Origin: an uncultured Eubacteriales bacterium
GTDB lineage: Bacteria; Bacillota; Clostridia; TANB77; RGIG9151
Direction: 5' to 3'
NCBI GenBank assembly: GCA_964478905.1
Contig: CAYZJZ010000008.1
Span: 1 to 18,308 of the forward strand
DNA length: 18,308 nt
Both the position numbers and the translations under genes were made by a program. Shown piece by piece: positions 3,488-18,308 of this stretch. The notes beneath the pieces are model-generated. The model did no database searches. It saw only the letters and a list, made by a program, of their open reading frames with translations, and was not told the origin of the DNA. Within the stretch, counting starts at the first letter, position 1, and each line of letters begins with the position of its first letter.

Positions 3488-3507
3488 AAGCCTCTCCCCT
3501 CGGCACA

Positions 3508-3536
3508 ATTCTATCACAAAACAGGCAAAAAATAAA
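3508..3536 (-). promoter_or_regulatory. Possible dnaE promoter: extended -10 TGATAGAAT (3508-3516) with a weak -35 TTTATT (3531-3536), 17-nt spacer
   Basis: Read on the minus strand: TTTATT-N17-TAGAAT with TGn immediately upstream of the -10. It lies between the upstream terminator and the dnaE SD. The -35 is poor and overlaps the terminator T-tract. Confidence 0.3.
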
Positions 3537-3554
3537 GGAGTATCTCTACTCCTT
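3527..3554 (-). terminator. Rho-independent terminator after the 108-aa gene
   Basis: Minus strand: AAGGAGTA-gaga-TACTCCTT (perfect 8-bp stem, 4-nt loop) followed by TATTTTTT. The TAA stop codon of the 108-aa ORF sits inside the 5' arm. Confidence 0.6.
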
Positions 3555-3879
3555 ACAGTACCAAAGTTTTACCTTCCAATTCATAATCTATATTTATGCT
3601 TCCCTTTAAATCAACTATAAATTGCTTCACTAAATATCTGCTTTGATTTTCAAAACACCTAAACTTAATAACTTTCACATCAGCATTAGTCATATCTGCC
3701 CACTCTTTTAAGTACTTTTCATCTTCTCTCTTTAATCGGCTTATTCTAAAACTGGTAAACCCATCTTTTATTTGACTAAGCGCGTGTAATTGAATTTGAT
3801 TCATTATACTTTCACGCCTATTATTCTTATCTTCAAAAAAATTACTTGCTACACAAATTAATTCGTCCCTATATTGCAC
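3553..3879 (-). CDS. Hypothetical protein, 108 aa, GTG start
   Basis: Open frame preceded by the strong SD AAGGAGG 7 nt upstream of the GTG at 3879. It has its own candidate promoter and terminator. I recognise no family. Confidence 0.65.
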   Translation of the reverse strand: MQYRDELICVASNFFEDKNNRRESIMNQIQLHALSQIKDGFTSFRISRLKREDEKYLKEWADMTNADVKVIKFRCFENQSRYLVKQFIVDLKGSINIDYELEGKTLVL

Positions 3880-3946
3880 CTTAGGAACCTCCTTGTCACA
3901 CTCTTATTTCGTCTCATTAGTAAACAACACTAATAGTTTAACACAA

Positions 3947-3976
3947 ATTCTACAAGAAATCAATAATTTATGTAAA
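3947..3976 (-). promoter_or_regulatory. Candidate sigma-A promoter for the 108-aa gene (-35 TTTACA, 18-nt spacer, -10 TAGAAT)
   Basis: Minus-strand read: TTTACA (3971-3976) and TAGAAT (3947-3952). An alternative pairing, TTGATT-N17-TAAACT, is also present in the same stretch. Confidence 0.4.
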
Positions 3977-3984
3977 CTTTCTCC

Positions 3985-4572
3985 CTAAGATTGCATTTTA
4001 TTACGGTAATACTCCTCAAGAGTAATCCCCTCTTCATATAGCTCTTTAGCTACATTTTTTCCAACATATCTTATGTGCCAAGGCTCAAATACATATCCGG
4101 TAACATCTTCTTTCCCTTTGGGATACCTTAATATAAAGCCATTATTTTGCATATTCTCTATTAGCCACTCATATGCATTAGTCTTTTCAAACTCCTCACA
4201 AAGCTTATATTCAACCTCTTCACAAGTAATATCCATAGCAAGACCGGTCTGATGTTCACTTTGGCCCGGCCTTGCACTATATTTATTAGCTCTTTCCCCA
4301 TCAATTTTATAGTTAGCCTTAAAAATATCTCTTTGTCTTTCAAACGACCTATACCCAGAAACAGCGTATAATTCAATTTTATTCTTCTTAGCTGTTTTAA
4401 ATAATTTCTCTAAAGCTTTAGCTGCGACGTGTCTCATAAGCTTAGACATCTCCAAAGTACCCTCGGTAAATTTCACTTTTGGAATTATCAAATCATAATG
4501 CTCATAATCTTTAGATAGCCAATTCTCTTTGTTAACCAAAACATCAATTCTTTCAGGTTCTTTAATCAACAT
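3985..4572 (-). CDS. M15B zinc D-Ala-D-Ala carboxypeptidase/dipeptidase, VanY/VanXY-like (195 aa from the refined start)
   Basis: Motifs SGYRSFERQ, SEHQTGLAMD (SxHxxGxAxD) and EPWHIRYVG (ExxH) are diagnostic of the VanY/LdcB/VanXY family. Start refined to the ATG at 4572, 6 nt after the SD GGAGGGG. Confidence 0.85.
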   Translation of the reverse strand: MLIKEPERIDVLVNKENWLSKDYEHYDLIIPKVKFTEGTLEMSKLMRHVAAKALEKLFKTAKKNKIELYAVSGYRSFERQRDIFKANYKIDGERANKYSARPGQSEHQTGLAMDITCEEVEYKLCEEFEKTNAYEWLIENMQNNGFILRYPKGKEDVTGYVFEPWHIRYVGKNVAKELYEEGITLEEYYRNKMQS

Positions 4573-4634
4573 AGTACACCCCTCCATTAAACTATACTAT
4601 GTTGAAATTGCAAATATGTTACAAGAATTTAACT

Positions 4635-6263
4635 CTACTCAAGCGCTGCGATAATAGTCTTTTCTACCTTTCTTAGCTTACCTTTCATATCTTCAAACTG
4701 TTCTTCGTCCATTCCAGCTCTTAAATCTTCTTTAATCATCAAGCACATTTCATCAACCTCATCTTTAAGAAGATTAAGCTTTTCAAGAATTTCAAGACAC
4801 ATAAATCTATATTTTCTATCCGGAGCTTCCTCACCAACTTGAGTTGCGTAATCATTTTTAATTTCAAACACATCTCCACGATTAGGAATTATCGTTCTAA
4901 TTCCAAAAGTATCCGTTATAACATCCGAAAATACCTTTTGTGATTCTTCTTCACCATGAACAATAAATATAGTCTTAGGTTTAGTCTTAAATTCATTAAG
5001 CCAATTAATTAAAGCTTTTTGGTCAGCGTGACCAGAAAATCCTTCAATATATTCAATTCTAGCTCTTACAGTAATATCTTCGCCAAAAATTCTAATTTGT
5101 TTCTCGCCATCAACAAGTCGTCTTCCCAAAGTTCCAATAGCTTGATAACCAACAAACAAAATAGTACTCTTCTCATCCCATAAATGATGTTTTAAGTGAT
5201 GGCGAATTCTACCAGCTTCACACATACCGCTCGCAGAAATAATAATTGACGGCTCTCTGTCTTCATTTATAGCCTTCGATTCTTCAACAGTCCTAGATAA
5301 CCTTAAAGTCGGGAAATCAACAGGATTTTTATTCTCCATAATATACCGTCTTGCAGTCTCATCATAACAGTCTACATTATCTTTATATATTTCAGTAGCA
5401 GAAATAGCAAGCGGACTGTCTATATAAACAGGAGTTTTCAAAATCTTTTCATATTTTTCCTTTAAAATATCTTTATTCTGATTTAATCCGTAAACAATTT
5501 CTTGTGTTCTTCCAACTGCAAACGAAGGAATAACCACGCGTCCGCCATTATCTATAGTTTCATCAACAATATTCACAAAATCTTCAAACCTATTTTCTCT
5601 CGCTTTATGAAATCTGTCTCCATAAGTAGACTCTAAAACAAGGAAATCAGCCGAATCAACAACTTCCGGATCACGTAAAATAGGAGTATCCTTATTTCCT
5701 AAGTCACCGGAAAATACAGCCTTAGTTTCCACTCCATTTTCCTTAACCCAAATCTCAATTACAGCAGACCCTAGCATATGTCCTGCATCTCTAAATCTAA
5801 CTTTAACATCATCATTTACTTGTATAACTTCATCATATGGGCAAGGTTCAAAAGCCTTCAAGCTCTCAACTGCACTTTCAGCAGTATAAAGTGGTGGAAC
5901 AGGATGCTTACCTGCTCTAATACGCTTTCTATTAATCCATTCAATTTCCATCTCTTGAATATGACCACTATCCGGTAACATTATACTACATAAATCACAA
6001 GTCGCCTTTGTAGCATAAACCTTTCCTTTAAAACCATCATTACACAACTTCGGAATTCTACCTGAATGATCGATATGTGCATGAGTCAAAAACATAAAAT
6101 CTATTGTGTTGGGAGCAAATGTAAAATCATCTACATTTAGCATAACTTCTTTATTTTGACCTTGGAACATACCACAATCAACCAAAAATTTGTACTTGCT
6201 CGTCGTTACCATAAAACAAGATCCGGTAACTGTTTTTGCTGCACCTAAAAACGATATTTGCAT
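4635..6263 (-). CDS. MBL-fold beta-CASP family RNA-metabolising hydrolase (CPSF73/RNase J-like), 542 aa
   Basis: HAHIDHSG (HxHxDH), downstream D and H motifs, SGHADQ (beta-CASP motif C) and VHGE near the end of the catalytic region, plus a roughly 90-aa helical acidic tail. Start refined to the ATG at 6263 (MQISFLGAAKTVTGS) after the SD AAGGGGAG. Confidence 0.85.
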   Translation of the reverse strand: MQISFLGAAKTVTGSCFMVTTSKYKFLVDCGMFQGQNKEVMLNVDDFTFAPNTIDFMFLTHAHIDHSGRIPKLCNDGFKGKVYATKATCDLCSIMLPDSGHIQEMEIEWINRKRIRAGKHPVPPLYTAESAVESLKAFEPCPYDEVIQVNDDVKVRFRDAGHMLGSAVIEIWVKENGVETKAVFSGDLGNKDTPILRDPEVVDSADFLVLESTYGDRFHKARENRFEDFVNIVDETIDNGGRVVIPSFAVGRTQEIVYGLNQNKDILKEKYEKILKTPVYIDSPLAISATEIYKDNVDCYDETARRYIMENKNPVDFPTLRLSRTVEESKAINEDREPSIIISASGMCEAGRIRHHLKHHLWDEKSTILFVGYQAIGTLGRRLVDGEKQIRIFGEDITVRARIEYIEGFSGHADQKALINWLNEFKTKPKTIFIVHGEEESQKVFSDVITDTFGIRTIIPNRGDVFEIKNDYATQVGEEAPDRKYRFMCLEILEKLNLLKDEVDEMCLMIKEDLRAGMDEEQFEDMKGKLRKVEKTIIAALE

Positions 6264-6299
6264 ACGCTTCTCCCCTTTCATAAGTACCAAAAATATTCA

Positions 6300-6758
6300 C
6301 TATTTATTTTTATCCAATAGTTTTTGTAATTCATCAACAAAACTATTTATATCCTTAAATTGTCTGTAAACTGACGCAAATCTTACATAAGCAACGTCAT
6401 CTAGTTCCTTTAGCTCATCCATAACTAACTCGCCAACCTCAAAAGAAGTTATTTCCTTCTTCATTTTATTACGTATCTGTAATTCAACGGAATTAACAGC
6501 CTTCTCCATTTGGTCAACCGTAACAGGTCTTTTCTCACAAGCTCTTATTATTCCATTCATAACTTTAGTTCTGTCAAAAGACTGACGACTTCCATCTTTC
6601 TTTATAACAATTAATGATACATCTTCTACTCTTTCATATGTAGTAAATTTCCTACCACAACTAATACATTCACGCCTACGTCGTATGCTCATTCCATTAT
6701 CAGCCGGTCTTGAATCTATAACTTTACTCTCCGGCACATAGCAAAACGGACATTTCAT
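6300..6758 (-). CDS. nrdR: Transcriptional repressor NrdR (zinc ribbon plus ATP-cone)
   Basis: MKCPFC...CxxC zinc ribbon, ATP-cone region ([24 protein letters not shown]) and typical length of 152 aa. Confidence 0.95.
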
Positions 6759-6769
6759 CTAATTTCCTC

Positions 6770-8071
6770 CTAACCTATAACCTTTGCAATTAATTTTTCC
6801 TTCTTAACTTCACTATCAACATACTCATATGCAGTATCTAAAAGCTCAATAACATCATTTACTTTAGCCTCATTATTTATATGTAGAGTAAGTAAAGACT
6901 CTCCTTCCTTTACAAACTCTCCACCCTTTTTTTCTAAAACAATTCCAACACCATAATCTATATTATCAGTCTTTTTAGCCCTTCCACCGCCTAACATCAT
7001 AGACGCAATTCCAAGTTTCTCAGCCTCAATTTTAGAAATATATCCGCTTCTTTTAGCAACATACTTTTTCATTACTTTAGCTCCGGGAAGTAGTGAAACA
7101 TCTTCAATAGACTTAATATCTCCACCTTGAGCCGAAATAAATTCTTTAAACTTATTAAACGCTTTACCATTATTAAGTAATTCTTTAAGTTTAATTTTAA
7201 GCTCCGATATTTCCCCACATTTTGCTAAATAAAGCATATTCGCAGCAAGTTCAATACATACCTCTTCTAAGTCTTTAGGACCTCTTCCGTTTAACGTATC
7301 AATCGCTTCTTTAACTTCAAGGGAATTACCAATTGCAAAGCCAAGAGGCTCATTCATATTAGAAATTACAGCAATAGTCTTTCTATTAACCATATCTCCA
7401 ATATCCACCATAGTTTTGGCTAATTTTTCAGCATCCTTTATATTTTTCATAAAAGCGCCATCACCATACTTAACATCTAAAACGATAGCATCAGCTCCAC
7501 CAGCTATTTTTTTGCTCATTATACTGCTTGCAATAAGCGGAATACAACTAACAGTCGCCGTAACATCGCGCAAAGCATATAACTTTTTATCAGCAGGAGC
7601 TAAATCACCTGTTTGACCAACAACTGAAATTCTTATATTATTCACATTTTCAATAAATTTCTCTATTGGAAGTGAAATATTAAATCCCGGAATCGCCTCT
7701 AATTTATCAACTGTACCACCGGTATGACCAAGACCTCTTCCCGACATCTTCGCAACAGGCACATCAAAACAAGCAACCAACGGCCCAACAATAAGAGTAG
7801 TTTTATCTCCAACTCCCCCGGTACTATGTTTATCCACTTTTATACCAGTTATACCTGATAAATCAGCAATATCTCCAGAATGAGCCATAGCCATAGTTAA
7901 ATTAGACGTTTCTTCCATAGTCATACCATTTAAGTAAATCGCCATAAGCAACGCTGTAATCTGGTAATCTTCAATAGAGCCATCAACCGTTCCCTTTACA
8001 AAGAAATCTATTTCCTCTTTAGAAAGTTCTCCCTTATCACGCTTCTTAGCAATAATATCGTATATTCTCAT
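6770..8071 (-). CDS. pdp: Pyrimidine-nucleoside (thymidine) phosphorylase
   Basis: 433 aa. N-terminal MRIYDIIAKKRDKGELSKEEI, DKHSTGGVGDKTTL phosphate-binding motif and MSGRGLGHTGGTVDKLE are classic for Pdp/DeoA. Confidence 0.95.
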   Translation of the reverse strand: MRIYDIIAKKRDKGELSKEEIDFFVKGTVDGSIEDYQITALLMAIYLNGMTMEETSNLTMAMAHSGDIADLSGITGIKVDKHSTGGVGDKTTLIVGPLVACFDVPVAKMSGRGLGHTGGTVDKLEAIPGFNISLPIEKFIENVNNIRISVVGQTGDLAPADKKLYALRDVTATVSCIPLIASSIMSKKIAGGADAIVLDVKYGDGAFMKNIKDAEKLAKTMVDIGDMVNRKTIAVISNMNEPLGFAIGNSLEVKEAIDTLNGRGPKDLEEVCIELAANMLYLAKCGEISELKIKLKELLNNGKAFNKFKEFISAQGGDIKSIEDVSLLPGAKVMKKYVAKRSGYISKIEAEKLGIASMMLGGGRAKKTDNIDYGVGIVLEKKGGEFVKEGESLLTLHINNEAKVNDVIELLDTAYEYVDSEVKKEKLIAKVIG

Positions 8072-8083
8072 AAGTCATCGCCC

Positions 8084-8455
8084 CTATAATACATTCTTTA
8101 TTAAGTTTATTTTTTCAGTTATAAAATTATTATCGGCATATTTTGCAAAAATCTCAATAACATCAAATCTAGCTACAAAATTTCCTAGTCGTTTATAATC
8201 AATGTAGTTTCTTGCAGTAAGTTCTAAATGTTTCTTCTTCCAATAATTAACCGCATTTTGAGGATGACCGTATTTATCATTAGTTCGCGTTTTAACCTCA
8301 ATAAATACCAAGCAATTTCCATCAAACGCAATTATATCTATCTCTCCAAACCTGCAAGAATAATTTGTTGTCAAAATTTTATACCCATTTTCCAACAAAT
8401 ACTCTCTTGCAACTTTCTCGCCAAAATTTCCAACAACTTTATTATACTTCTCCAT
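8084..8455 (-). CDS. yraN: YraN family protein (UPF0102, restriction-endonuclease-like fold)
   Basis: GEKVAREYLLENGYKIL...GEIDIIAFDGNCLVFIEVKTR matches the UPF0102 D-x(n)-E-x-K core. 123 aa. Confidence 0.85.
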   Translation of the reverse strand: MEKYNKVVGNFGEKVAREYLLENGYKILTTNYSCRFGEIDIIAFDGNCLVFIEVKTRTNDKYGHPQNAVNYWKKKHLELTARNYIDYKRLGNFVARFDVIEIFAKYADNNFITEKINLIKNVL

Positions 8456-8457
8456 AA

Positions 8458-8760
8458 TTAAACCCTAACATCAAATTTCTTTTCGCCTTGACCTTTTTCT
8501 TTAATATATTTCAGCTTTATAAAATCATCCGTTCTCTCTGTAATTTCAAACAAAACAATATCTCCTATACCCGCAGCAATTCTTTCCTCAAGTCTTGCTT
8601 CTAATATAACACCATCATCAAGTTCCAACTCAACTTTACCATCTCTGGATATGTTTTTAATTCTTGAATGAAACTTTTTACCTTTTCTAAACCTGTCATT
8701 TTGTTTGTCAGGATTCACCGCGTGAATATAATTTAATCCATTTACTTCATTTATATTCAT
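8458..8760 (-). CDS. Hypothetical protein (100 aa from the refined start), first gene of the yraN-pdp-nrdR transcription unit
   Basis: Open frame whose stop lies 2 nt from the yraN ATG. Start refined to the ATG at 8760 (MNINEV), 8 nt after GAAGGGA. The 8778 ATG would lie at or upstream of the predicted transcript start. No family recognised. Confidence 0.55.
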   Translation of the reverse strand: MNINEVNGLNYIHAVNPDKQNDRFRKGKKFHSRIKNISRDGKVELELDDGVILEARLEERIAAGIGDIVLFEITERTDDFIKLKYIKEKGQGEKKFDVRV

Positions 8761-8786
8761 ATGTATCATCCCTTCCATATACTTTT

Positions 8787-8815
8787 ATGATACACTTTTT
8801 TAAACTACTAGTCAA
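8787..8815 (-). promoter_or_regulatory. Candidate sigma-A promoter of the 100aa-yraN-pdp-nrdR unit (-35 TTGACT, 17-nt spacer, -10 TATCAT)
   Basis: Minus-strand read: TTGACT (8810-8815) and TATCAT (8787-8792). Confidence 0.45.
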
Positions 8816-8829
8816 ATAGCACAAACTAC

Positions 8830-8864
8830 AAAAAAAATTTCCTACTCAAATTATATTTTTTGAG
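8830..8864 (-). terminator. Weak AT-rich hairpin plus T8 run, possible terminator of the 93-aa gene
   Basis: Minus strand: ACTCAAA-loop-TTTGAGT (7-bp A/T-rich stem), then AGGAAA, then TTTTTTTT. The T-tract is separated from the stem by 6 nt, so this is non-canonical. Confidence 0.25.
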
Positions 8865-8988
8865 TCTAACATTAACAAAAATGGACTATAAAAAACTCAT
8901 TTGCCATTAGTATAAAGCATAATGCTTCATAAATTTTGAGAGTTTTTTACAATCCATTCTAAAATTCGGTTCCAAAAAATAACCAGGC

Positions 8989-9270
8989 CTAAAGGATATT
9001 TTCAAGACTTGCTTTAATCTTTTTTAATTCTTCATTTTTTTCTTCAGCCGATTCATCTTCAAGGATAATACTATTTAACCCCAGCTGTAACAACAATTCT
9101 TTCAATTCATCCATTTTCCATTGATTTTCATCCTCTTTTGCGACAAAACTTTTAATTAAAAATATTCCCGAAAAATTATAGTTTTCCCCTGATAATTCTT
9201 TATACGCTTCCTTCCATTTTTCTGTACATTCTTTTAATAATTTTTCATTTACTTCTTCAATGTTTTCCAA
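8989..9270 (-). CDS. Hypothetical small acidic protein, 93 aa, TTG start
   Basis: Open frame with the strong SD GGGAGGGA 6 nt upstream of the TTG at 9270 and a dedicated consensus-like promoter. Glu-rich and predicted helical. No family recognised. Confidence 0.6.
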   Translation of the reverse strand: MENIEEVNEKLLKECTEKWKEAYKELSGENYNFSGIFLIKSFVAKEDENQWKMDELKELLLQLGLNSIILEDESAEEKNEELKKIKASLENIL

Positions 9271-9290
9271 GGATAGTCCCTCCCTATTTC

Positions 9291-9312
9291 CTGCTAATTA
9301 ATTGTTTAGCAG
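9291..9312. promoter_or_regulatory. Inverted repeat CTGCTAA-N8-TTAGCAG in the 5' UTR of the 93-aa gene
   Basis: Perfect 7-bp arms located between the predicted transcript start and the SD (ends about 5 nt before GGGAGGGA). Either an operator or an SD-proximal RNA hairpin. Confidence 0.35.
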
Positions 9313-9337
9313 TATTCATTTTTACCCATAGAACAGT

Positions 9338-9366
9338 ATTGTACTGCATTTTTATACTTATGTCAA
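9338..9366 (-). promoter_or_regulatory. Strong sigma-A promoter for the 93-aa gene (-35 TTGACA, 17-nt spacer, -10 TACAAT)
   Basis: Minus-strand read: TTGACA (9361-9366) and TACAAT (9338-9343). The palindrome CAGTA-N3-TACTG (9334-9346) is centred on the -10. Confidence 0.6.
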
Positions 9367-9376
9367 CTTTTTTCGC

Positions 9377-9631
9377 TTATTTACTAAATTTAATATATTT
9401 ATCCATCAAATAAGATATAATTTCCGGAGTATATTTTTCCATTGCTTGTTTTTTTAATGGCTCATCTCGATTTATTCTTAAATATTCAACTTTTCCATCG
9501 TATTGATGAACAAAGAAATTCTCTACATTATCCGGCAAATTAATCTTTATATCATCGTCTAATAAGTCAATTATATCTCTTACTTGATTAATCGACTTTT
9601 GAATATCTAACTTAGTATCTTCCTCCACCAA
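9377..9631 (-). CDS. Hypothetical small acidic protein, 83-84 aa, overlapping the 3' end of the upstream 561-aa gene
   Basis: Start is TTG at 9631 or GTG at 9628, preceded by the SD AAGGGAGAG. It overlaps the upstream stop (9612-9614) by 17-20 nt, indicating translational coupling. By my count 18 D/E versus 13 K/R. No family recognised. Confidence 0.6.
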   Translation of the reverse strand: MVEEDTKLDIQKSINQVRDIIDLLDDDIKINLPDNVENFFVHQYDGKVEYLRINRDEPLKKQAMEKYTPEIISYLMDKYIKFSK

Positions 9632-11297
9632 TATACTCTCCCTTCAGCATTTTTTTCCTTAAATCCAAAATCCCTTTTGAAGGCAACTCACTTTTAGCAA
9701 TTTCAACAGCATCACCAAGAGGATTTTGTTCTAAGTCACGGCCATCTTTTTCAAATGTAAAAGCCAGTAACGCTTGGACAGCTTCTAGCATTTGAGCTTT
9801 CGTACAATTTTGAGCTTTAACAAATTCGTCAATTTCTTCTACCGAAATAGTTCCTTCTTTTTTTTCGTCTTTCATTTTCTTAAACTTATCACTTATCTCT
9901 TGTTTTATAGATTTCAACAATTTGGAAACTTTTTCTTCATCATTAAAAGTCTCTCTATTTATTTTATCTTTGCTTAATCCATCTAAAATAAGCAATAATG
10001 CCGAATCCACAACGGTATCAGGCTCAACGTCATAATCTTCAAATTTAAAAGTACTAAATATATTTTTAATTTTAGTTATTAATGTTTTCATAGAATTCAT
10101 GGAAAATTGCTCTCTTAACACCTCATTTTCCACTTTATCAAGAATAGATATATTCTCATCAATATCGTTTATTCCCAAAGCTTCTAAATTAGCAAGCATC
10201 TCATATCTTTCCCCTATTTCATCAAATGTCCCTAGTTTTCGTGGGAAATTATTAGCAAGATTAAATCTATTCTCAACCATTTTCAATATTTTTTCAAAAT
10301 CCCCATTTTGAAAATCAATAGCATTTACTATTTTATTTAATAGATATATACTCTCCGCATTCTTTTCATCGTTTCTAGAATCCACCAAACCATATAATTT
10401 ATTAAACTTCTCATCAACTTCTTTTTGTGAATCATTTTGATATTCATCTCTTATTTTTGCTCTAATTTTACTTTCAATTACTTTTACTCCTGAGTGTCCA
10501 CCCTCATTATATATTTTTTCTTCTTGAGTTAAAACCTCTCCATTTAGTAACTTATCCAATTCATCTTCTGAAACATCTAAAACTGGGAAATTATCACTAA
10601 TAATTTCTTTTATACCAAGTTTATTTTCACTTCTAGTAAAAAGCATATCATTTAACGTATTCATTCCTTTTTCGTTATGTCTAAGTTCCTCACCGGTCAT
10701 TTGAGCAAATTTAAAATCTTTTCCAGAGAAAGAATTGTATTCACCTACACCCTCACCACCATATGATTGATACATATCATTTGTAACATCTACTAAATGT
10801 GCAAAATCCGAATTAGCATCCACCATTCCCAAATGCCATGAAATAACAGACTTTTCGTCATATTTATCTAATTGAACTGTATAATTTGATTCAATCTTAC
10901 TTTTCGCTGGATCAATTCCACTGCCACGTTCCGCTATTTCTCCAACAACATCAATACGAGACAATGCATCAATGCCCACGGTTTTCATTAAATAAAACCT
11001 TCTTTTATTAATATTCGAAATTTCAGGTAGTTTAGCTAATCTATTAGATAATTCTACCACATTAACAACCTTAGTTATCCATTCCAACTTATCATATTTA
11101 CCTATTGAGGGAATTTTACCTGATAAATAAGTCGGTAACCTTATTCCCTCACTTTTTAGCATATCCCTTAATTCTTTAATACATATATCTAAATTAGAAA
11201 TAGAGTCTTCTTGTATTTCAATCTCAAAACTTCCATTAAAGCCGGTTGCATTTTTTAATGTATTATATATATAATGAATTTTGCTATTACTTATCAT
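9612..11297 (-). CDS. Large acidic hypothetical protein, 561 aa from the refined start
   Basis: Long uninterrupted frame. ATG at 11297 (MISNSK) follows GGTGAT by 4 nt; the ORF-track GTG at 11309 is possible. No Walker A, HExxH, HNH or relaxase motif that I can recognise. The C-terminal half is rich in E/K/D and looks helical. The extreme C-terminus is basic (LDLRKKMLKGEYIGGGRY). Confidence 0.8.
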   Translation of the reverse strand: MISNSKIHYIYNTLKNATGFNGSFEIEIQEDSISNLDICIKELRDMLKSEGIRLPTYLSGKIPSIGKYDKLEWITKVVNVVELSNRLAKLPEISNINKRRFYLMKTVGIDALSRIDVVGEIAERGSGIDPAKSKIESNYTVQLDKYDEKSVISWHLGMVDANSDFAHLVDVTNDMYQSYGGEGVGEYNSFSGKDFKFAQMTGEELRHNEKGMNTLNDMLFTRSENKLGIKEIISDNFPVLDVSEDELDKLLNGEVLTQEEKIYNEGGHSGVKVIESKIRAKIRDEYQNDSQKEVDEKFNKLYGLVDSRNDEKNAESIYLLNKIVNAIDFQNGDFEKILKMVENRFNLANNFPRKLGTFDEIGERYEMLANLEALGINDIDENISILDKVENEVLREQFSMNSMKTLITKIKNIFSTFKFEDYDVEPDTVVDSALLLILDGLSKDKINRETFNDEEKVSKLLKSIKQEISDKFKKMKDEKKEGTISVEEIDEFVKAQNCTKAQMLEAVQALLAFTFEKDGRDLEQNPLGDAVEIAKSELPSKGILDLRKKMLKGEYIGGGRY

Positions 11298-11353
11298 ATA
11301 AATCACCACTCAATATATCGTCAAAAAAATCTCAACCTTAATATATACTCTTT

Positions 11354-11408
11354 AAAAAAGGTGGACTAAAGTCGAGGCTACTTTTTCAGTATCCTCACCT
11401 TAGTCCAC
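11354..11408 (-). terminator. Strong rho-independent terminator ending the T4CP transcription unit
   Basis: Minus strand: GTGGACTAA...TTAGTCCAC (perfect 9-bp outer stem, extended by 2+4 further pairs including GAGG/CCTC), followed directly by C and TTTTTT. It starts 4 nt after the stop of the 55-aa gene. Confidence 0.75.
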
Positions 11409-11411
11409 TTT

Positions 11412-11579
11412 TTACATCATACTTGCTACTTCACTCATAACTTTACTTGCTTTTTTTATAGCTTGACGACTAGGTTTCCAAACTTTCTTTTTCATCCATC
11501 CGGAATTACTTATGCCGGTTAATCCTAAAGCCGCTCCAACAATACTACCAACTAACAAGCCTCGTGCAAAATTATTCAT
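11412..11579 (-). CDS. Small membrane protein, 55 aa, YtxH-like Gly-rich helix (not in the supplied ORF track)
   Basis: Hand translation: MNNFARGLLVGSIVGAALGLTGISNSGWMKKKVWKPSRQAIKKASKVMSEVASMM. SD GAGGTG lies 6 nt upstream of the ATG at 11579, with TAA at 11412-11414. One Gly/Ala-rich hydrophobic segment is followed by a Lys-rich tail. It sits between the T4CP stop and the terminator. Confidence 0.55.
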   Translation of the reverse strand: MNNFARGLLVGSIVGAALGLTGISNSGWMKKKVWKPSRQAIKKASKVMSEVASMM

Positions 11580-11636
11580 AACACTCACCTCTATGAATTA
11601 TTTTTTTCAAATAGTCAAAAATAATACATAGGGATT

Positions 11637-13547
11637 TTAGGAAGATAAACTTCCAAATAATTCATCAAACTTAGCTTCCAAACGCTTTTGAATATCTTCA
11701 TCATCTAAATTGCTTTCAATTTCCGGATCTTCTCCTATACCATTGTTTGGGATATGTGAATTATCAGCCGGTCCGGTTTTTAATCCATAAGGATAAACAA
11801 TCCTAAATTCACCTCTATGGTTTAACGTTGGGTCATTATGATTAAGTTTAAACTTATCAATTTCATTTGCCTTTGGATGCATACTAATATCGTATTTTTT
11901 AGCCTTAATCGGTCTCATACCTTTAACCATAACAATACTTGTATCAAGTGGGAGACGTTTTAATTCATCAATAGTCATCAAAGAACGCCCCATAGATTGG
12001 TCAGATATACTTTGAGAATCAAGACCACTTGCAAGTAATGAACCTCCTAATTTCCCGCTTCTCGAAACTTGTTCTTTATTAATGGTAGTTTCGCCTAAAG
12101 TCTTTGAAATATACTCACAAGTAGCAGTAGCCTGGCTTCCTAAGAATAGATGAGTATCACAGTTAGCCATAATATTTTCATAAATATCTTTATACAAATC
12201 CTTTAATTGGTCTATACTCTGTAAAACAATACTAATATTAATATTTCTACTTCTACTCGTACTAAGCTTTTGGTTAAAATCAGGAATTTGTCCAACGTTT
12301 GCGAATTCGTCCATAAGGAAGAATACAGGAATATCCAACGTACATTTTCCGTCCGGTCTTATCGCCGAATTCTCATCAGCCTTATAATATAGTCTTTGTA
12401 AAACTTGACCAAAAAATACAGTAGAAATAAAGTTGAATGCACTATGGCTATCCGGTGTAATAACAAAAGTAGCCATTTTTTTAGACCCCATTGCGTCTAT
12501 ATCTATCGAACTCGTTCCGGTAATTGAGGAAATCTGAGGAGTATCAAAGACATTAAGACGAGTCGCAAGTCCAACTAAAACTCCCGCCCTTGTTTTATCT
12601 ACCGCCAATCTAAAAGTTTCATAGCTTTTTCTAGCCATATGTTCAAACGGAAGGCGCATAAATACATCATCCATCCATTCAAAATTTTCTCCGGCTCTTA
12701 CCATAGCTAAACAACTCGCAAAAGACCGTTCCTCTTTAGGACATTCGCTAAGCAAATAATAAATACAAGAATTAAGTAAAGCTCTCTCCGCTTGAGGCCA
12801 AAAAGGATCTTCATTAGTAGAACCTTTACTGGTACCTTTAATTATAGCATCACTTATAATATCAACATCAAGCGTTCCACCTATATGCCAAAGCGGATTA
12901 TACGAGTCACTACATTCAGGATTAACCAAGTTAATACATCTTACTTCATATCCATTTTCTTGTAAAAATCCGGCAGCAGTATCAAAGTTTTCACCTTTAG
13001 GGTCAGTTACAACATATGAGCCTAGCATTTGCATCATATTCGGCATAATATAACCTCTTGATTTTCTAGAACCCGCACCACCTATAATTAAAACATTTTT
13101 ATTAATAAATTTGTTATCCGTAGTTAAATAATTATCTTTAGCTAAAATTATACCTGTATTTTTATTTAATATTTCATATTGCTCTCCATCAGCCCAACCA
13201 CTAGAACCATGTTCAACGCCTTCATACTCTTTTTTAATCCAATAATTTTTAACTTCATACATTGTACAAAATATTAAAACGATAACAGCACTCCAGAAAA
13301 ATCCACCTAAAAAGGCGTTCCTTGCAACAACCGACGAAAATAGTTCTCCAATAAACGTAACCGGATTAAGATTTACAAAAATTTTCGTCACAAAGAAATT
13401 TATAACTTCAAAACCCTTAATTCCGTTACTATTTATTTGAGATATCGTAGCCGCATAAGAACCGCCTAAAAATATTCCAACTATTAAAGTAAGTATCCCA
13501 TAAAAACTAAATCTTTTTTTCCTGTTTTTCAAAAGATTTTTCATCAT
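11637..13547 (-). CDS. Type IV secretion coupling protein (VirD4/TraG/PcfC family T4CP), 636 aa, with an atypical Walker A
   Basis: Two N-terminal TM segments (FYGILTLIVGIFLGGSYAATI; FLGGFFWSAVIVLIFCTMY). P-loop region NVLIIGGAGSRKSRGYIMPNMMQ...SYVVTDPKGE, Walker B FFLMDEFANVG, IVLQSIDQLKDLY and NCDTHLFLGSQ motifs are typical of Gram-positive T4CPs. SD GAGGAGAG lies 7 nt upstream of the ATG. Confidence 0.9.
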   Translation of the reverse strand: MMKNLLKNRKKRFSFYGILTLIVGIFLGGSYAATISQINSNGIKGFEVINFFVTKIFVNLNPVTFIGELFSSVVARNAFLGGFFWSAVIVLIFCTMYEVKNYWIKKEYEGVEHGSSGWADGEQYEILNKNTGIILAKDNYLTTDNKFINKNVLIIGGAGSRKSRGYIMPNMMQMLGSYVVTDPKGENFDTAAGFLQENGYEVRCINLVNPECSDSYNPLWHIGGTLDVDIISDAIIKGTSKGSTNEDPFWPQAERALLNSCIYYLLSECPKEERSFASCLAMVRAGENFEWMDDVFMRLPFEHMARKSYETFRLAVDKTRAGVLVGLATRLNVFDTPQISSITGTSSIDIDAMGSKKMATFVITPDSHSAFNFISTVFFGQVLQRLYYKADENSAIRPDGKCTLDIPVFFLMDEFANVGQIPDFNQKLSTSRSRNINISIVLQSIDQLKDLYKDIYENIMANCDTHLFLGSQATATCEYISKTLGETTINKEQVSRSGKLGGSLLASGLDSQSISDQSMGRSLMTIDELKRLPLDTSIVMVKGMRPIKAKKYDISMHPKANEIDKFKLNHNDPTLNHRGEFRIVYPYGLKTGPADNSHIPNNGIGEDPEIESNLDDEDIQKRLEAKFDELFGSLSS

Positions 13548-13570
13548 ATGTTTTCTCTCCTCTTTAGTAA

Positions 13571-14131
13571 CTATCTATCCATTCCATCTATCTCTCTCAT
13601 TTTTCTTCTCTCCGGATCATTATATCTAGCGTACCTCTCTTGAGCAATCACGCTATCGTCAGTTATATCTTTGTCATTTACATTATCCGCTCTATCAACA
13701 TATTTAGCTCTATCTTCAACTGTAACTTCTCTCTCGGTCTCTTTCTCCGGTCTTTCAACAATTTTATTCTGAATTAAAATTTCTTCAATTTCATCGCGAT
13801 TTTGAGCTGCTTCTATCTGTAAAGCTACATTTGGACTAAGTTCCTTATCTAAAGTTATCTTATCTTGAATCGGTCCGTCGTTGTAGAAAATAACTGTTCC
13901 TTCATTTACAGGCATTATAACTGCTTTTGAATTATCCATATTTAAATACACACCGGTAGCTCTTAAATTATCATATAATTCATTAAAATTTTGAGCTTCC
14001 ATAATCATTTTTTCCATTTCTTGGTTGCTAAGATTAGTTTTTAGATTACCGGAACTCTCAAACTCCGGTTCTCCCTTATCATTAATCCCCATTACATAAG
14101 CTCCGAAATTCAGTCTAGTCTCTCCGTTCAT
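13571..14131 (-). CDS. Hypothetical protein, 186 aa (globular N-terminal part of about 115 aa plus a highly charged tail)
   Basis: SD GAAGGAGG lies 7 nt upstream of the ATG at 14131. Its stop is 23 nt before the T4CP start. The tail ERPEKETEREVTVEDRAKYVDRADNVNDKD...RRKMREIDGMDR looks low-complexity/disordered. No family recognised. Confidence 0.7.
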   Translation of the reverse strand: MNGETRLNFGAYVMGINDKGEPEFESSGNLKTNLSNQEMEKMIMEAQNFNELYDNLRATGVYLNMDNSKAVIMPVNEGTVIFYNDGPIQDKITLDKELSPNVALQIEAAQNRDEIEEILIQNKIVERPEKETEREVTVEDRAKYVDRADNVNDKDITDDSVIAQERYARYNDPERRKMREIDGMDR

Positions 14132-14145
14132 AAATATGCCTCCTT

Positions 14146-14712
14146 CTACAACATTACATTAGCTAACTCCTTAGTTCTATCATCTTGAGGTAATTTTACA
14201 GTAACGCTCATTTCTAAAACAACATACTTTCTATATGGATTTAACTTATAGTTTCCCTTTAAGTTACCAAACATATCAGGAGAAGAAATTTGAGGAATAA
14301 TTTGCTCACCCGTCTCAGTATCCAGTAAAACCATTTGTCTTTTAGGATTATAAGTAAACGAAATATTTCTAGCCTCAACATCAGATTCTCCATAATTCAT
14401 ATACTCAAGTTGTATAGTTTCATCAGAAGATACAAATTTATTATCAATAATTTGTCCATATCCTATAACACATCTGTTCTTAGCTAAAGACGCAATCAAA
14501 ACATTCGTGTTATCTCCTGATGCATCATAAGGAATAGAAAAAGTTTTCTGAATTCTTCCATCCACCGCATTTTCAATATACTCAAGTTTTTCTAAAGTAC
14601 ACAACGGTAAGTTCTTCCATTGTTCCTTTTTAGTAAATTTAATTGAAAACGCAACTACATTAACTCCCACAGGTTGAACAACATTAAATTCTATTCCTTC
14701 CAAAAAGTTCAT
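14146..14712 (-). CDS. Hypothetical protein, 188 aa, first gene of the T4CP unit
   Basis: SD AAGGAGGAA lies 5 nt upstream of the ATG at 14712. No signal peptide or TM segment. Composition suggests a beta-rich fold. No family recognised. Confidence 0.7.
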   Translation of the reverse strand: MNFLEGIEFNVVQPVGVNVVAFSIKFTKKEQWKNLPLCTLEKLEYIENAVDGRIQKTFSIPYDASGDNTNVLIASLAKNRCVIGYGQIIDNKFVSSDETIQLEYMNYGESDVEARNISFTYNPKRQMVLLDTETGEQIIPQISSPDMFGNLKGNYKLNPYRKYVVLEMSVTVKLPQDDRTKELANVML

Positions 14713-14745
14713 TTGGCTTCCTCCTTGGTAACATAATCTATTTAT

Positions 14746-14774
14746 ATTTTAGCACATAACATATCAAAAATCAA
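14746..14774 (-). promoter_or_regulatory. Near-consensus sigma-A promoter with extended -10 driving the 188aa-186aa-T4CP-55aa unit
   Basis: Minus-strand read: TTGATT (14769-14774), 17-nt spacer, TGCTAAAAT (-10 TAAAAT at 14746-14751 with TGn). Immediately upstream is an A/T-rich block with TTTATATA repeated (14776-14783 and 14791-14798), resembling an UP element. Confidence 0.6.
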
Positions 14775-14861
14775 GTTTATATAGCTATGCTTTATATAAC
14801 TTTATGTTATTATTTAAATTCCCTATTTGAAAAAAGGTAATGAATCTAAACAGTAACAAAT

Positions 14862-16517
14862 TTATCTATTTCGCATCTCCTCAGCGTGTTTTATCGCAAC
14901 ATCAGACATATTTCCGCCACTTATGATTCTGGCAATTTCTCTTATAGTCTCGTCTTCATTTAGTTTTTTAACTGAAGTCTCCATTTTATCATTAACAAGT
15001 TTTTTACTAATAAAGAAATTACATTCTCCTTTAGCCGCAATGCTAGGTAAATGAGTAACACAAATAACTTGTTTGTTTTTCGCAATTTCAAGCATTTTCT
15101 CGCCAACTGCATTTCCGGCCTCTCCACTAATTCCCGTATCTATTTCATCAAATATCATTACCGGTATTATATCGGCATTTGCTAAAACATTCTTTAGCGA
15201 AAGCATAATCCTTGAAATTTCTCCCCCAGAAGCAGTCTTAGAAAGCTCTTTAACTTTCTCTCCCGGATTAGATGAAAATAATATTTCCACATCGTCCATA
15301 CCATTTTTTAAAAAGCTTCCACTAATAAACTCCACTTTTATTTCAAATCGAGCCTTCGGCATTTCAAGTTGAGCCAGTATATCTGCTAATCGTATCTCTA
15401 ATTCTTTAGCAACTTTTTGTCTAATTTCAGAAATCCTATGTGCTAAATCAGTCATATTCTTTTCAACATTTATAAGCTCATTGTTTAGATTATTTAGAAT
15501 ACTCTCAGAATTACATAATTCTTCATATTCTTTTTCTATTTTTTCATATGTCTCTAAAATCTCTTTTACACTATTTCCATATTTTTTCTTTAATCTCGAA
15601 ATTAAATCCATTCTTTCTTCAACATTATTCAGCTCATCTTCATCAATATAAACCTTATCTCTTTCAGCGCTTACATTATATCCTACTTCTTCAATTTGGT
15701 AATATGCTTCGTTTAGCGTCTCTTCTATTTTCTTATACTCATCTTTAATATCCGAAACATCCAAAATACGTTTTATAGCATGTTGAAGAATAGACAGTAT
15801 CCCGTTCTCGTCATTAATGGAAGAATTACAAAACTCTAACGAATCCATAACTTTTTTCGCATTAGCAAGTATTTTCCTTTTCTCAAAAAGTTCTTCATCT
15901 TCATTATCTTTTAACTGAGCCGATGATATTTCATCAATTTGGAATTTCAAAAATTCCATAGTTCTAGCCCTTTGTTCAGGATTTCCGCCCATTTTTTCTA
16001 TCTTATCTAAAGTTTCCTTGCGAATTTGATACAGCTTTTCATACTCATCCTTGTACTTCTTTAATTTATCATACGCAAAGTTATCTAACACTTCGATATG
16101 TTTTTTAGAGTTAAGTAATGACTGATTATCGTGTTGACCATGAATATCAACTAATAAACTTCCAACTTCACGAAGTTCATTTACTGTAACCATTTTGCCA
16201 TTAATTTTAGCCATACTCCTGCCATTTTGTAAAATTTCTCTATAAATTATTATTTCTTCTTCATCATAACCTAAAGTTTTAAATTCCTCTCTTAATTTAG
16301 GATTATCTATAAAAAATAATGCCTCAGCATACGCTTTAGCCTCTCCGGTTCGTATATTTTCACGATTTACCTTTCCACCCAAAATCATAGCAATTGCACC
16401 AATAATAAGAGTTTTCCCGGCACCCGTCTCCCCTGTCATAATATTAAAGCCTTTTTCAAAATCTATTTCCAAATCGCTAATTATCCCCAAATTAGATATA
16501 TGAATATGTGATAACAT
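14862..16517 (-). CDS. recN: DNA repair protein RecN (SMC-like ATPase)
   Basis: N-terminal MLSHIHISNLGIISDLEIDFEKGFNIMTGETGAGKTLII (Walker A), a long central coiled coil, and C-terminal SGGEISR signature followed by VMIFDEIDTGISG (Walker B). 551 aa. Confidence 0.95.
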   Translation of the reverse strand: MLSHIHISNLGIISDLEIDFEKGFNIMTGETGAGKTLIIGAIAMILGGKVNRENIRTGEAKAYAEALFFIDNPKLREEFKTLGYDEEEIIIYREILQNGRSMAKINGKMVTVNELREVGSLLVDIHGQHDNQSLLNSKKHIEVLDNFAYDKLKKYKDEYEKLYQIRKETLDKIEKMGGNPEQRARTMEFLKFQIDEISSAQLKDNEDEELFEKRKILANAKKVMDSLEFCNSSINDENGILSILQHAIKRILDVSDIKDEYKKIEETLNEAYYQIEEVGYNVSAERDKVYIDEDELNNVEERMDLISRLKKKYGNSVKEILETYEKIEKEYEELCNSESILNNLNNELINVEKNMTDLAHRISEIRQKVAKELEIRLADILAQLEMPKARFEIKVEFISGSFLKNGMDDVEILFSSNPGEKVKELSKTASGGEISRIMLSLKNVLANADIIPVMIFDEIDTGISGEAGNAVGEKMLEIAKNKQVICVTHLPSIAAKGECNFFISKKLVNDKMETSVKKLNEDETIREIARIISGGNMSDVAIKHAEEMRNR

Positions 16518-16526
16518 AAACTCCTC

Positions 16527-17285
16527 CTATAAATGAAACTTTTCACGTACAATATCAAAAAAGCATTTATCATTTAACTTTATAATCTTAGCTTTACAAT
16601 TAGGCTTTTTAATTTCAACCTTTCTCCCCTCAACCGCCACTTGACCATCCGCAGTAATCAAAAACTCATTACTCTCTCCTAAAATTTCTATTTTTGTATC
16701 CGCATCGGAAATAATCGGTCTTTGATGTAAAGAATGAGCACAAATCGGTGTAACGACAACTACATCAAGCTTAGGATCTACAATAGGTCCACCAGCAGAC
16801 AAAGAATATGCAGTCGAACCGGTAGGAGTCGCAATAATAAGCCCGTCAGACTTATAATTATCCACATGTTTCCCATTAAAAAACAAATTCAAATCAAGAG
16901 TCCTGGCTGAATTAATCCGGCTAATCACGATATCATTCAACGCCAGCATTTTTCTATCATTTACAGTCGCCTCAAGTAAAGCCCTCTCTTCAATTTTATA
17001 CTCTTTTTTTATCAATTTCGCAACAACATTTTTCACGTCTTCAATTCCGGCCTCCGTCAAAAAACCTAAATGCCCTAGATTAATTCCCAAAATCGGAGTA
17101 CCTAAAAAAGTCCTGTTAGCCGCTAAAAAAGTTCCATCTCCACCTAAAGAAATAATAACCTCATATTCTCGCTCCTTATCAGCAATTTCAGAATCAACAT
17201 TAAACTCCTTTGTAACCTCAATTATTTCCTTAGTAATCCTAAAAGAAGAAGTTTTTTCCGAATTAACAAAAATACCAAATCTCAT
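16527..17285 (-). CDS. nadK: NAD kinase
   Basis: GGDGTFL motif, NDIVISR, PTGSTAYSLSAGGPIV, 252 aa. Its stop lies 9 nt upstream of the recN start (a tight operon). Confidence 0.9.
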   Translation of the reverse strand: MRFGIFVNSEKTSSFRITKEIIEVTKEFNVDSEIADKEREYEVIISLGGDGTFLAANRTFLGTPILGINLGHLGFLTEAGIEDVKNVVAKLIKKEYKIEERALLEATVNDRKMLALNDIVISRINSARTLDLNLFFNGKHVDNYKSDGLIIATPTGSTAYSLSAGGPIVDPKLDVVVVTPICAHSLHQRPIISDADTKIEILGESNEFLITADGQVAVEGRKVEIKKPNCKAKIIKLNDKCFFDIVREKFHL

Positions 17286-17302
17286 AAAAATAATTTCCTT
17301 TC

Positions 17303-17347
17303 AAAAAAAATCCCTCCAACAAAACAACCATAAAGCATTGTTGGAGG
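17303..17347 (-). terminator. Strong rho-independent terminator downstream of prs
   Basis: Minus strand: CCTCCAACAA-15 nt loop-TTGTTGGAGG (perfect 10-bp stem) followed by GATTTTTTTT. The T-tract ends 17 nt upstream of the nadK ATG. Confidence 0.8.
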
Positions 17348-17369
17348 AACTATATTTTTAATTTAATTT

Positions 17370-18308
17370 CTAATAAAACATTTCTCCCATAGAATGACCT
17401 TCGTGAATTCTTTTAATAGCTTCGCCGAAAATAGGAGCAACAGTTAAAACTTTTATTTTATCCAATTGTTTTTCAGGCGGAAGCGGAATTGTATTTGTTA
17501 TTATAAATTCCTTTATAGACGAATTCTTTATTCTCTCAATCGCAGGTCCTGATAAAACTCCATGAGTACAAGCCGCATAAATCTCTTTTACATTATATTC
17601 TTCTAAGACATGTACTGCGTTCATAATAGAACTTCCACGATCAATTTCATCATCAAAAATCACACATCTTTTTCCGCTTACATCTCCGACTATGTTTTCT
17701 ATTAAAGTTTCTTGGCTATTACCTAATCTTCTCTTATCGAGCATAGCAATAGGTGCATTAAGACGAGTCGCATATTTATAGGCTTTTTTAGAACTTCCGG
17801 CATCAGTAGCAACAACAACTAAATCATCAAAATTCTTAGCCTTAAAATAATTTGCAAGCAAATCTGCAAAAACTAATTGATCCGCAGGTACATTAAAGAA
17901 ACCTAAAATCTGAGTAGCGTGTAAATCAGAAGTAAGAACTCTGTTAGCTCCCGCTGCTGCTAATAAATCCGCCACCAACTTAGAAGTAATCGCAATTCTA
18001 GGTTGATCTTTTTTATCAGAACGCGCATAAGGAAAATAAGGTAAAACCGCCGTAATCCTCTTAGCAGACGCTCTTTTTAAAGCATCAATAGTAATAAGTA
18101 ACTCCATAAAATTCTCATCAACAGGAGGCTTAGAAGTTTGAATTACGAAAACATCGTCCCCTCTTACAGTCTCTAAAATCTTCACAAACCGATTGTCATT
18201 ATCAAACTTAAACGATTCGCTCTCTCCTAAAGGTAGTCCAATAGAATCGCACACTTCCTTCGCAAATTCTTTACTAGCATTACAACCAAAAATTTTTAAT
18301 TGGTCCAT
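17370..18308 (-). CDS. prs: Ribose-phosphate pyrophosphokinase (PRPP synthetase), 312 aa; the start codon coincides with the window edge
   Basis: VRGDDVFVIQTS, MELLITIDALKRASAKRITAVLPYFPYARSDKK, DLHATQILGFFNVP and FDDEIDRGSS (PRPP-binding loop). The ATG at 18306-18308 gives a normal-length Prs, but the upstream context is outside the window. Confidence 0.9.
   Translation of the reverse strand: MDQLKIFGCNASKEFAKEVCDSIGLPLGESESFKFDNDNRFVKILETVRGDDVFVIQTSKPPVDENFMELLITIDALKRASAKRITAVLPYFPYARSDKKDQPRIAITSKLVADLLAAAGANRVLTSDLHATQILGFFNVPADQLVFADLLANYFKAKNFDDLVVVATDAGSSKKAYKYATRLNAPIAMLDKRRLGNSQETLIENIVGDVSGKRCVIFDDEIDRGSSIMNAVHVLEEYNVKEIYAACTHGVLSGPAIERIKNSSIKEFIITNTIPLPPEKQLDKIKVLTVAPIFGEAIKRIHEGHSMGEMFY

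Follow-up and report, generated by a model that had tools for sequence, protein, structure and literature searches.

A type IV coupling protein in a candidate domesticated host operon of uncultured Clostridia, with a putative tail-adaptor family

What is a type IV coupling protein (T4CP) doing among housekeeping genes, with no conjugation genes beside it? The question is raised by an 18,308-nucleotide (nt) stretch of DNA from an uncultured Eubacteriales bacterium (contig CAYZJZ010000008.1, positions 1 to 18,308; this whole stretch is called the window here), in which a 636-amino-acid (aa) T4CP lies between recN and yraN. T4CPs are treated as conjugation markers, and the NCBI annotation model would label this one a 'conjugal transfer protein'. 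An earlier sequence-only reading of the window left two alternatives: an integrated mobilisable remnant, or a T4CP-type ATPase recruited into an undescribed system. The comparative data presented here support the second. Judged from sequence comparisons, it is highly likely that the four-gene unit that contains the T4CP (operon A: o188, o186, T4CP and o58) is a domesticated, non-conjugative host module and that the interval consists of two independent operons; the module very probably performs a job other than conjugation. Positions of all features are collected in Table 1.

The interval holds seven open reading frames (ORFs), all on the minus strand and of the sizes first described, and the flanks are indeed housekeeping genes: prs, nadK and recN lie beyond one end, yraN, pdp, nrdR and dnaE beyond the other. 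Of the seven products, the 636-aa protein alone is recognizable, by matches to PF02534 and NF045973. The other six ORFs have no significant match in Pfam, NCBIfam, PHROGs or PADLOC, and profile searches assign none of them to a known conjugation accessory, relaxase or pore family. Profile scans of the window ORFs also bear out the reported lack of a relaxase, VirB4, VirB6, hydrolase or integrase in the window.

How secure is the assignment of the T4CP? It scores 229.8 bits against PF02534 (8e-68; cutoff 20.1) and 418.6 bits against NCBIfam NF045973, 'VirD4-like conjugal transfer protein, CD1115 family' (cutoff 250), and it also matches PF12696 and PF10412, the latter (TrwB_AAD_bind) over residues 149-546 at 2.3e-18. 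From a membrane anchor at the N-terminus the protein leads into a nucleotide-binding domain, in which an all-alpha domain is inserted, and it ends in an acidic tail; the translation shows hydrophobic stretches around residues 14-36 and 78-98. By sequence and architecture the protein thus classifies as a T4CP, one that departs from the family in its Walker A motif and in having no type IV secretion system (T4SS) or relaxase gene linked to it at the loci scanned.

Table 1. Coordinates of the operons, genes, motifs and expression signals in the window
Feature	Positions	Strand	Description
Operon A: o188, o186, T4CP, o58	11411-14775	-	Own sigma-A promoter and terminator
Sigma-A-type promoter	14746-14774	-	TTGATT, 17-nt spacer, extended -10 TG-n-TAAAAT; from scan and reading
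o188	14146-14712	-	Cytoplasmic tandem beta-sandwich protein (predicted); constant partner of the orphan T4CP
o186	13571-14131	-	Fast-evolving accessory; two repeats of ~63 aa, charged tail ending DG(M/L)DR
T4CP, 636 aa	11637-13547	-	VirD4/TraG type, derived from CD1115 family
Deviant Walker A GGAGSRKS	13059-13082	-	Residues 156-163; Arg161 replaces the Gly preceding Lys; aligned to Cag5
Walker B FFLMDE	12306-12323	-	Residues 409-414, intact
C-terminal tail motif DIQKRLEAKFDELFG	11652-11696	-	Residues 618-632, clade-specific
o58	11412-11579	-	55 aa from ATG at 11579; frame 11412-11588; last operon A gene, tier 1
Intrinsic terminator of operon A	11354-11408	-	Hairpin of -33.6 kcal/mol, z -5.78, then T run
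Operon B: o565, o84, o93	8989-11309	-	Separate trio, after secDF in relatives
o565	9612-11309	-	First operon B gene; 561 aa from ATG
o84	9377-9631	-	Second operon B gene; overlaps o565 by 20 nt
Promoter-like site before o93	9338-9366	-	TTGACA-17-TACAAT, 11/12 consensus positions
o93	8989-9270	-	Third operon B gene

Do the seven ORFs form one unit? The sequence-only reading described a single cassette wedged into a core region, and this turned out to be wrong. DNA homology to relatives runs in two blocks, one spanning the T4CP unit (11411-14775) and the other the o565 unit (8995-11328), with breaks at 11411 and 11328, and the terminator of operon A falls within the unshared 80 nt between them. 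In none of the eight species genomes that carry a close T4CP relative does the o565 trio adjoin the module. The neighbours past o58 vary by species (tig-clpP-clpX, rhodanese and FTHFS genes, or ispG). At three related loci (L001-L003) o565-o84-o93 follows secD-secF, with no T4CP nearby. The homology breaks, together with the position of the trio after secDF elsewhere, show two units whose juxtaposition is specific to the window genome. The interval is therefore composed of two unrelated, independent host operons that adjoin only in this genome.

Is operon A a remnant in decay, or is it maintained? T4CP homologues were sorted by identity into tier 1 (70-97%), tier 2 (51-60%) and tier 3 (39-46%, several hundred proteins); an exact search for the window's T4CP in a contig index gave no record. 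The order prs-nadK-recN-o188-o186-T4CP-o58 is kept in seven of eight related species genomes, the eighth (L011) differing in the upstream neighbour. Across the eight species, identities are 72-97% for the T4CP, 54-90% for RecN and 50-79% for NadK. Ratios of nonsynonymous to synonymous substitution (dN/dS; NG86 method, the window compared with the three closest genomes) are 0.03-0.05 for the T4CP, 0.04-0.07 for o188, 0.04-0.06 for recN, 0.08-0.14 for o186 and 0.07-0.24 for o58. The T4CP is more conserved than RecN and is under strong purifying selection.

A T4CP standing alone among unannotated genes is what a decaying integrative and conjugative element (ICE) or integrative and mobilizable element (IME) might leave behind, and some distant relatives have a frameshift in the P-loop, which would also fit. 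Yet all four genes are intact in every tier-1 genome, and dN/dS values of 0.03-0.14 argue against decay; the tier-3 frameshift has a single fixed position, where it creates a near-unused CGG codon, with both halves open and constrained. Nor are there boundaries of an element. Repeats resembling attachment (att) sites are short, at chance level, and do not enclose the module; tRNA genes and Rfam elements are absent from the window; and Pfam finds no integrase, recombinase or relaxase family in the window ORFs or in 81 proteins encoded near the module at related loci. Relatives showed no empty site, and the GC content of 0.28-0.38 matches that of the flanks. The integrated mobilisable remnant offered earlier is thus very unlikely in view of synteny in seven of eight genomes, purifying selection, the lack of att sites, tRNA, integrase or a compositional shift, and a clade unlinked to T4SSs. 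A decaying ICE or IME is barely credible as a general explanation, and for the lineage of the window it is refuted.

How general is the arrangement? Nine independent chromosomal contexts, with T4CP identities of 39-97%, are all housekeeping. In other sub-groups the module lies beside mreBCD and a PBP2 gene, between dnaJ upstream and lipB and fab genes downstream, between dnaJ and sbcD, sbcC and prfB, between comEA and prfB, between ftsH and spoIID and spoIIID, or downstream of ligA and nth (L024). When the upstream gene was compared with an o188 profile in four contexts, it was a clear homologue in L015, L017 and L023 and a marginal one in L016 (E 0.004); in the remaining contexts position and size indicate that an o188-type gene lies upstream. 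A metagenome scan with the T4CP alignment gave 80 loci, which the clade-profile score separates into 50 of orphan type (at least 580 bits) and 30 of conjugative type (414-504 bits). An o188 gene precedes the T4CP in all 46 orphan-type loci with sufficient upstream DNA and in 0 of the 30 conjugative-type loci. Similarly, nearly all orphan-type loci that reach the C-terminus have a KFDELF tail, which is absent from the conjugative type (L073-L104). The 50 orphan-type loci contain no DUF3801, VirB6, PrgI, VirB4 or SLT gene, and no T4SS channel or relaxase gene was detected in the window, in L001-L024 (405 kb) or at these 50 loci. The same profiles detect T4SS genes in 13-25 of the 30 conjugative-type loci (DUF3801 in 25, VirB6 in 19, VirB4 in 13). 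In a neighbour-joining tree, rooted with an outgroup of four conjugative sequences only, the orphan genes form one clade in which tiers 1 and 2 together are sister to tier 3. Conjugative relatives are at 33-37% identity, and the nearest plasmid-borne T4CPs at only 30-34%. The orphan T4CP clade is vertically inherited and widespread in uncultured gut and rumen Clostridia.

These data bear on whether the T4CP, though host-encoded, docks onto a T4SS channel encoded elsewhere, at another locus or in a resident ICE, and delivers DNA or proteins through it. The protein passes the family cutoffs; its acidic C-terminal tail and all-alpha domain are the usual elements for docking of substrates and partners; the CD1115-type T4CP of Clostridium botulinum pCDC3875 has a vaguely similar end (LRDELEKLFES); and separately encoded VirD4 proteins are known in some Gram-negative systems, as are IMEs that carry their own T4CP. 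However, genes for a pore, relaxase or PcfB were not found within 8-10 kb in 9 plus 46 contexts, the clade stands apart from every T4CP with T4SS linkage and is accompanied by a partner family of its own, and neither the Walker A change nor the P-loop frameshift was seen in the conjugative T4CPs sampled. Vertical inheritance and core-gene-like constraint would also be unusual for a part that serves mobile elements. Docking onto a remote channel is considered unlikely.

What is the partner, o188? At E<1e-3 the family counts 75 clusters in a set of 1.84 billion representative proteins, and none of the 60 full-length clusters of homologues has a Pfam domain; a Pfam scan of 30 diverse members gave nothing consistent. 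The AlphaFold2 (AF2) model is all-beta, with two beta-sandwich domains (predicted local distance difference test score, pLDDT, 76.7; predicted template modelling score, pTM, 0.74). Foldseek returned only generic Ig-like/Fab matches from the PDB (template modelling score about 0.25) and nothing useful from BFVD, and a PDB profile search with the o188 alignment had no match. o188 founds a new protein family. The possibility that o186 or o188 is a divergent PcfB/DUF3801 was considered and rejected, there being no Pfam match, and only 0.1% probability in hhalign comparison with a 28-sequence DUF3801 alignment.

A second constant feature is the C-terminal tail of the T4CP, whose end, DIQKxLEAKFDELFG, is common to all tiers. 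Expressed as a regular expression, the motif forms the C-terminus of 108 of 120 T4CP matches, with 11 more reading RFDELFNIV; outside T4CPs it has no match in 506,043 background ORF residues. Of interest are two multidomain proteins, found in the o188 search of representative proteins and effector-like at the N-terminus, that carry the tail motif in cis, 50-75 residues before an o188 domain. P0281 (676 aa) consists of a TIR domain, the motif as DDQLNAKFRELFAED, the o188 domain and Sel1/TPR repeats; P0251 (620 aa) has an N-terminal domain with an Rx4H motif, followed by LSATFDHLFGED, the o188 domain and a Sel1 repeat. Since tail motif and o188 domain are joined in the same fusion proteins, o188 probably binds the tail, by the Rosetta-stone argument; we hold such binding to the T4CP tail to be a better than even prospect. 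The pair looks like a module that can be reused, possibly in proteins of immune type.

Might the whole system then, as the sequence-only reading also allowed, be one of immunity or exclusion, in which a membrane T4CP with o188 senses or blocks incoming conjugation or phage DNA? The TIR domain that P0281 joins to the o188-type domain and tail motif matches Thoeris, pAgo and CBASS-type TIR models at 1e-9, and the Rx4H domain of P0251 can be read in the same direction. PADLOC (PADLOC-DB v2), however, gave no significant match, the best being mad8 for the T4CP with E 0.009, and there is neither an effector gene nor a defence-island context. The stable, single position among housekeeping genes, constraint at least at the level of recN and a constitutive-type promoter also run counter to it. 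An immune role for the module itself is improbable.

The Walker A motif is the main difference between the tiers. The window T4CP does not conform to the canonical GxxxxGK[ST]; all tier 1-2 sequences that cover this stretch have GGAGS[R/K]KS, tier 3 has GGSGxGK[ST], and the conjugative T4CPs sampled keep GK[ST]. When tiers 1-2 are compared with tier 3, 137 of 148 columns conserved in both groups carry the same residue, and Walker A supplies two of the 11 that discriminate. In Walker B, D413, E414 and the following F415 are invariant throughout the orphan clade. The Gly-to-Arg change probably alters nucleotide handling, with turnover that may be slowed or switch-like, rather than abolishing function, because the whole protein is constrained.

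Tier 3 presents a different peculiarity. In 27 tier-3 T4CP genes a +1 shift is needed before the P-loop can be read. Two forms occur: type A, GTN-GGA-C-GGN-TCN-GGN (e.g. L045:10395-10470, L041:6390-6460 and L057:10410-10480), and type B, GTN-GTA-C-GGA-GGT, where the extra C is one codon earlier and GTT replaces GTA in one locus (e.g. L053:7410-7480, L058, L066 and L069). In both, a CGG codon arises in the zero frame; CGG accounts for just 0.4% of Arg codons (0.1 per 1000 codons) in the frameshifted loci. About 156 codons before the shift and 489-533 codons after it are open, and omega after the shift is 0.13-0.23 in eight of nine pairs, the most divergent pair having 0.44. In the neighbour-joining tree the frameshifted genes intermingle with the in-frame ones. 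Sequencing error or decay was considered and rejected: many independent assemblies have the shift, its site is no homopolymer, the two different insertion points both make CGG, and both halves stay constrained. It looks like a candidate programmed +1 recoding site at a hungry or unassigned codon; an internal TTG start is a less likely alternative.

On what does the module act? T4CPs are DNA-dependent translocases or ATPases, and genes of double-strand breaks and DNA processing recur as neighbours (recN, SbcD/SbcC-like genes, comEA, ligA, nth); for these reasons DNA is suggested as the substrate, a tentative proposal that we would put at somewhat less than an even chance. Among 81 neighbouring proteins at 29 dereplicated tier-3 loci, Metallophos (13 matches) and AAA_27/AAA_23 (11) are found downstream, and DnaJ plus DnaJ_C, CbpA-like (22), upstream. 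The Metallophos and AAA_27/AAA_23 pair is SbcD/SbcC-like or YhaO/YhaN-like, often with prfB after it. In tier 3 a DnaJ-type gene and this pair nearly always flank the module, for example in L019 (8218-9123 and 12204-15396), L027, L035, L045 and L057. A comEA-type gene (SLBB plus HHH_3) lies directly upstream of the o188-type gene in L021 (6563-7178) and L022 (6619-7164); in L021 it appears to be split into two 95-aa ORFs.

The DnaJ-type gene upstream in tier 3 keeps another reading alive, that of protein handling. Here the T4CP ring with its o188 adaptor would recruit or unfold a client, for example the disordered, charged o186-type protein with its conserved C-terminus as signal, perhaps together with DnaJ/DnaK, for export or quality control at the membrane. 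A DnaJ plus DnaJ_C gene is directly upstream in nearly all dereplicated tier-3 loci, and o186 orthologues retain the charged tail ending DG(M/L)DR, which is of relevance as T4CPs of effector-translocating systems recognize C-terminal signals. On the other hand, conservation of the middle gene stops at tier 1, and the gene sometimes encodes just 40 aa, the o188 gene has a promoter separate from dnaJ, and no channel component is present. A protein-handling role is rather unlikely.

The explanation that we favour for the whole is an exapted T4CP module with o188 as tail adaptor and DNA as substrate, which, as a blended estimate over parts of differing strength, we consider moderately probable. 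The T4CP would form a membrane-anchored hexameric ring; the o188 beta-sandwich would hold its C-terminal tail, acting as adaptor or regulator; the module, independent of conjugation, would act at the membrane on some cytoplasmic macromolecule, DNA being the likeliest; and in the lineage of the window the Gly-to-Arg change in Walker A would slow or switch nucleotide turnover. A more daring version combines all elements: a stand-alone T4CP-o188 machine that moves or senses DNA at the membrane, with its ATPase throttled by the P-loop Gly-to-Arg change or, in sister lineages, by a programmed +1 frameshift, and an adaptor-tail pair reused in TIR immune proteins. This version is speculative and, taken as a whole, doubtful.

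Several points weigh against the favoured explanation. The T4SS scans covered the module loci, and a distant pore may be present elsewhere in the genome. The proposed o188-tail interaction comes from two fusion proteins and from co-occurrence, and the fusion of an o188 domain with a TIR domain fits an immune-type reading better than a housekeeping one. The idea of a DNA substrate draws on post hoc neighbourhood trends, in lineages that are not independent samples. The P-loop arginine could abolish ATP binding, in which case 'motor' would be the wrong word for the window's lineage. Lastly, the junction of the two operons (11329-11410) is seen in this window alone, where an assembly chimera is possible.

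How does the module compare with known systems? It shares Pfam and NCBIfam membership, domain order and Walker B with the conjugative T4CPs of the CD1115 family, such as that of pCDC3875. It differs from them in its Walker A, GGAGSRKS, in its clade-specific tail and in the partner o188, which is unrelated to DUF3801; the pCDC3875 order is DUF3801(PcfB)-T4CP-VirB6-PrgI-VirB4-SLT, and the orphan module has none of these companions. In the F-plasmid TraD-TraM pair and in Legionella DotL with its adaptors, the C-terminal tail of a T4CP docks a dedicated adaptor, and the same logic may apply to the LEAKFDELFG tail and o188. Those adaptors, however, share neither sequence nor fold with o188, and they feed a T4SS channel; here no such channel is linked. 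FtsK/SpoIIIE and Streptomyces TraB, hexameric ring ATPases anchored in the membrane, work on DNA with no dedicated channel for secretion, and they offer the nearest functional analogy for a lone T4CP that would handle DNA; they belong to another family, absent from the T4CP matches, and lack an o188-type partner. In IMEs the T4CP is likewise encoded apart from the mating pore, but IMEs also have a relaxase, an integrase, att sites and a patchy distribution, none of which applies to the orphan module.

No description of such an exapted or orphan T4CP module was found in the searchable literature. What is new is an exapted coupling protein with an obligate partner family, o188, in a module that is not an ICE or IME. 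As an example of a conjugation ATPase exapted in Gram-positive bacteria, the clade is a clean one. As it consists of host genes without a mating apparatus, surveys that count such matches as traces of mobile elements may be misled. It also offers testable handles: the tail-adaptor pair, a natural Walker A variant and, in sister lineages, a candidate bacterial +1 recoding site at a near-unused codon. If the substrate is indeed DNA, these abundant Clostridia of gut and rumen would possess a new system for handling DNA at the membrane.

The promoter noted at 14774-14746 is present, but such sites are not more frequent in the window than in shuffled sequences (31 versus 32.9). It carries weight because it is conserved across nearly all lineages examined: a TTGAC/-10 pair is found upstream of the o188-type gene in nearly every one, with a perfect TTGACA-17-TATAAT in L017 and L019, and tier-1 L012 is without a clear one. 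A sporulation-specific role, suggested by nearby SpoIIR, SpoIID and YpeB genes, was dropped because the lineages examined show a promoter of sigma-A type. The earlier description holds for the AAGGAGG ribosome-binding site and for the short intergenic gaps (14, 23 and 57 nt). The terminator at 11408-11354 also holds up, with a strong fold that a simple scan had missed; L005 has a different hairpin and T run at the same position.

Two genes of operon A, o186 and o58, appear to be lineage-specific accessories. Orthologues of o186 in L005-L013 are 32-89% identical. A direct DNA repeat within the gene (13774-13808 and 13963-13997, spaced by 189 nt) gives rise to the two protein repeats, which have the motifs EAQNFNELYDNL and EAAQNRDEIEEIL. 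o186 itself is not conserved outside tier 1, and in tier 3 its place is taken by unrelated ORFs of 40-100 aa or by a fusion to o188 (L023). o58 is a small single-pass membrane protein with a glycine-zipper-like helix; it is directly 3' of the T4CP gene in L005-L015, 53-91% identical, and absent from tiers 2-3. One tier-1 genome, L013, has several unannotated genes in succession some 2 kb downstream of the module (15539-20579); the last encodes a 511-aa T2SSE-family ATPase, and the run may be a type IV pilus or competence pseudopilus cluster.

Operon B is an independent, lineage-restricted orphan operon without demonstrable link to the T4CP unit. Homologues of o565 amount to only seven clusters in 5.8 billion proteins, among them P0001, which is 95% identical. 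The protein is largely helical with a small sheet (AF2 pLDDT 70) and has an invariant C-terminal GGGRY; it has no match in a PDB profile search and no structural match by Foldseek. At L001-L003, o84 is 73-86% and o93 64-81% identical, and homology to L001 ends at 8995. The coupled gene overlap described earlier is that of o84 with o565. A second promoter, placed at 9366-9338, exists as a site, but sites of this kind are as frequent in shuffled sequences.

The window as a whole is AT-rich, and all called genes are on the minus strand. GC skew is strongly negative across 1-18308 (-0.15 to -0.54), which, together with the co-oriented genes, fits a stretch of one replichore. The flank on the yraN side also holds an RNase J-like gene and vanY, and yraN is of the UPF0102 type. 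ORFs of 108 aa (3553-3879, in the housekeeping flank) and 106 aa (8458-8778, between o93 and yraN) have no Pfam match. In the gap after o93 lies a 19-nt inverted repeat (8880-8898 and 8940-8958; 89% complementary, 41-nt loop), which may serve either to terminate operon B or as a regulatory hairpin.

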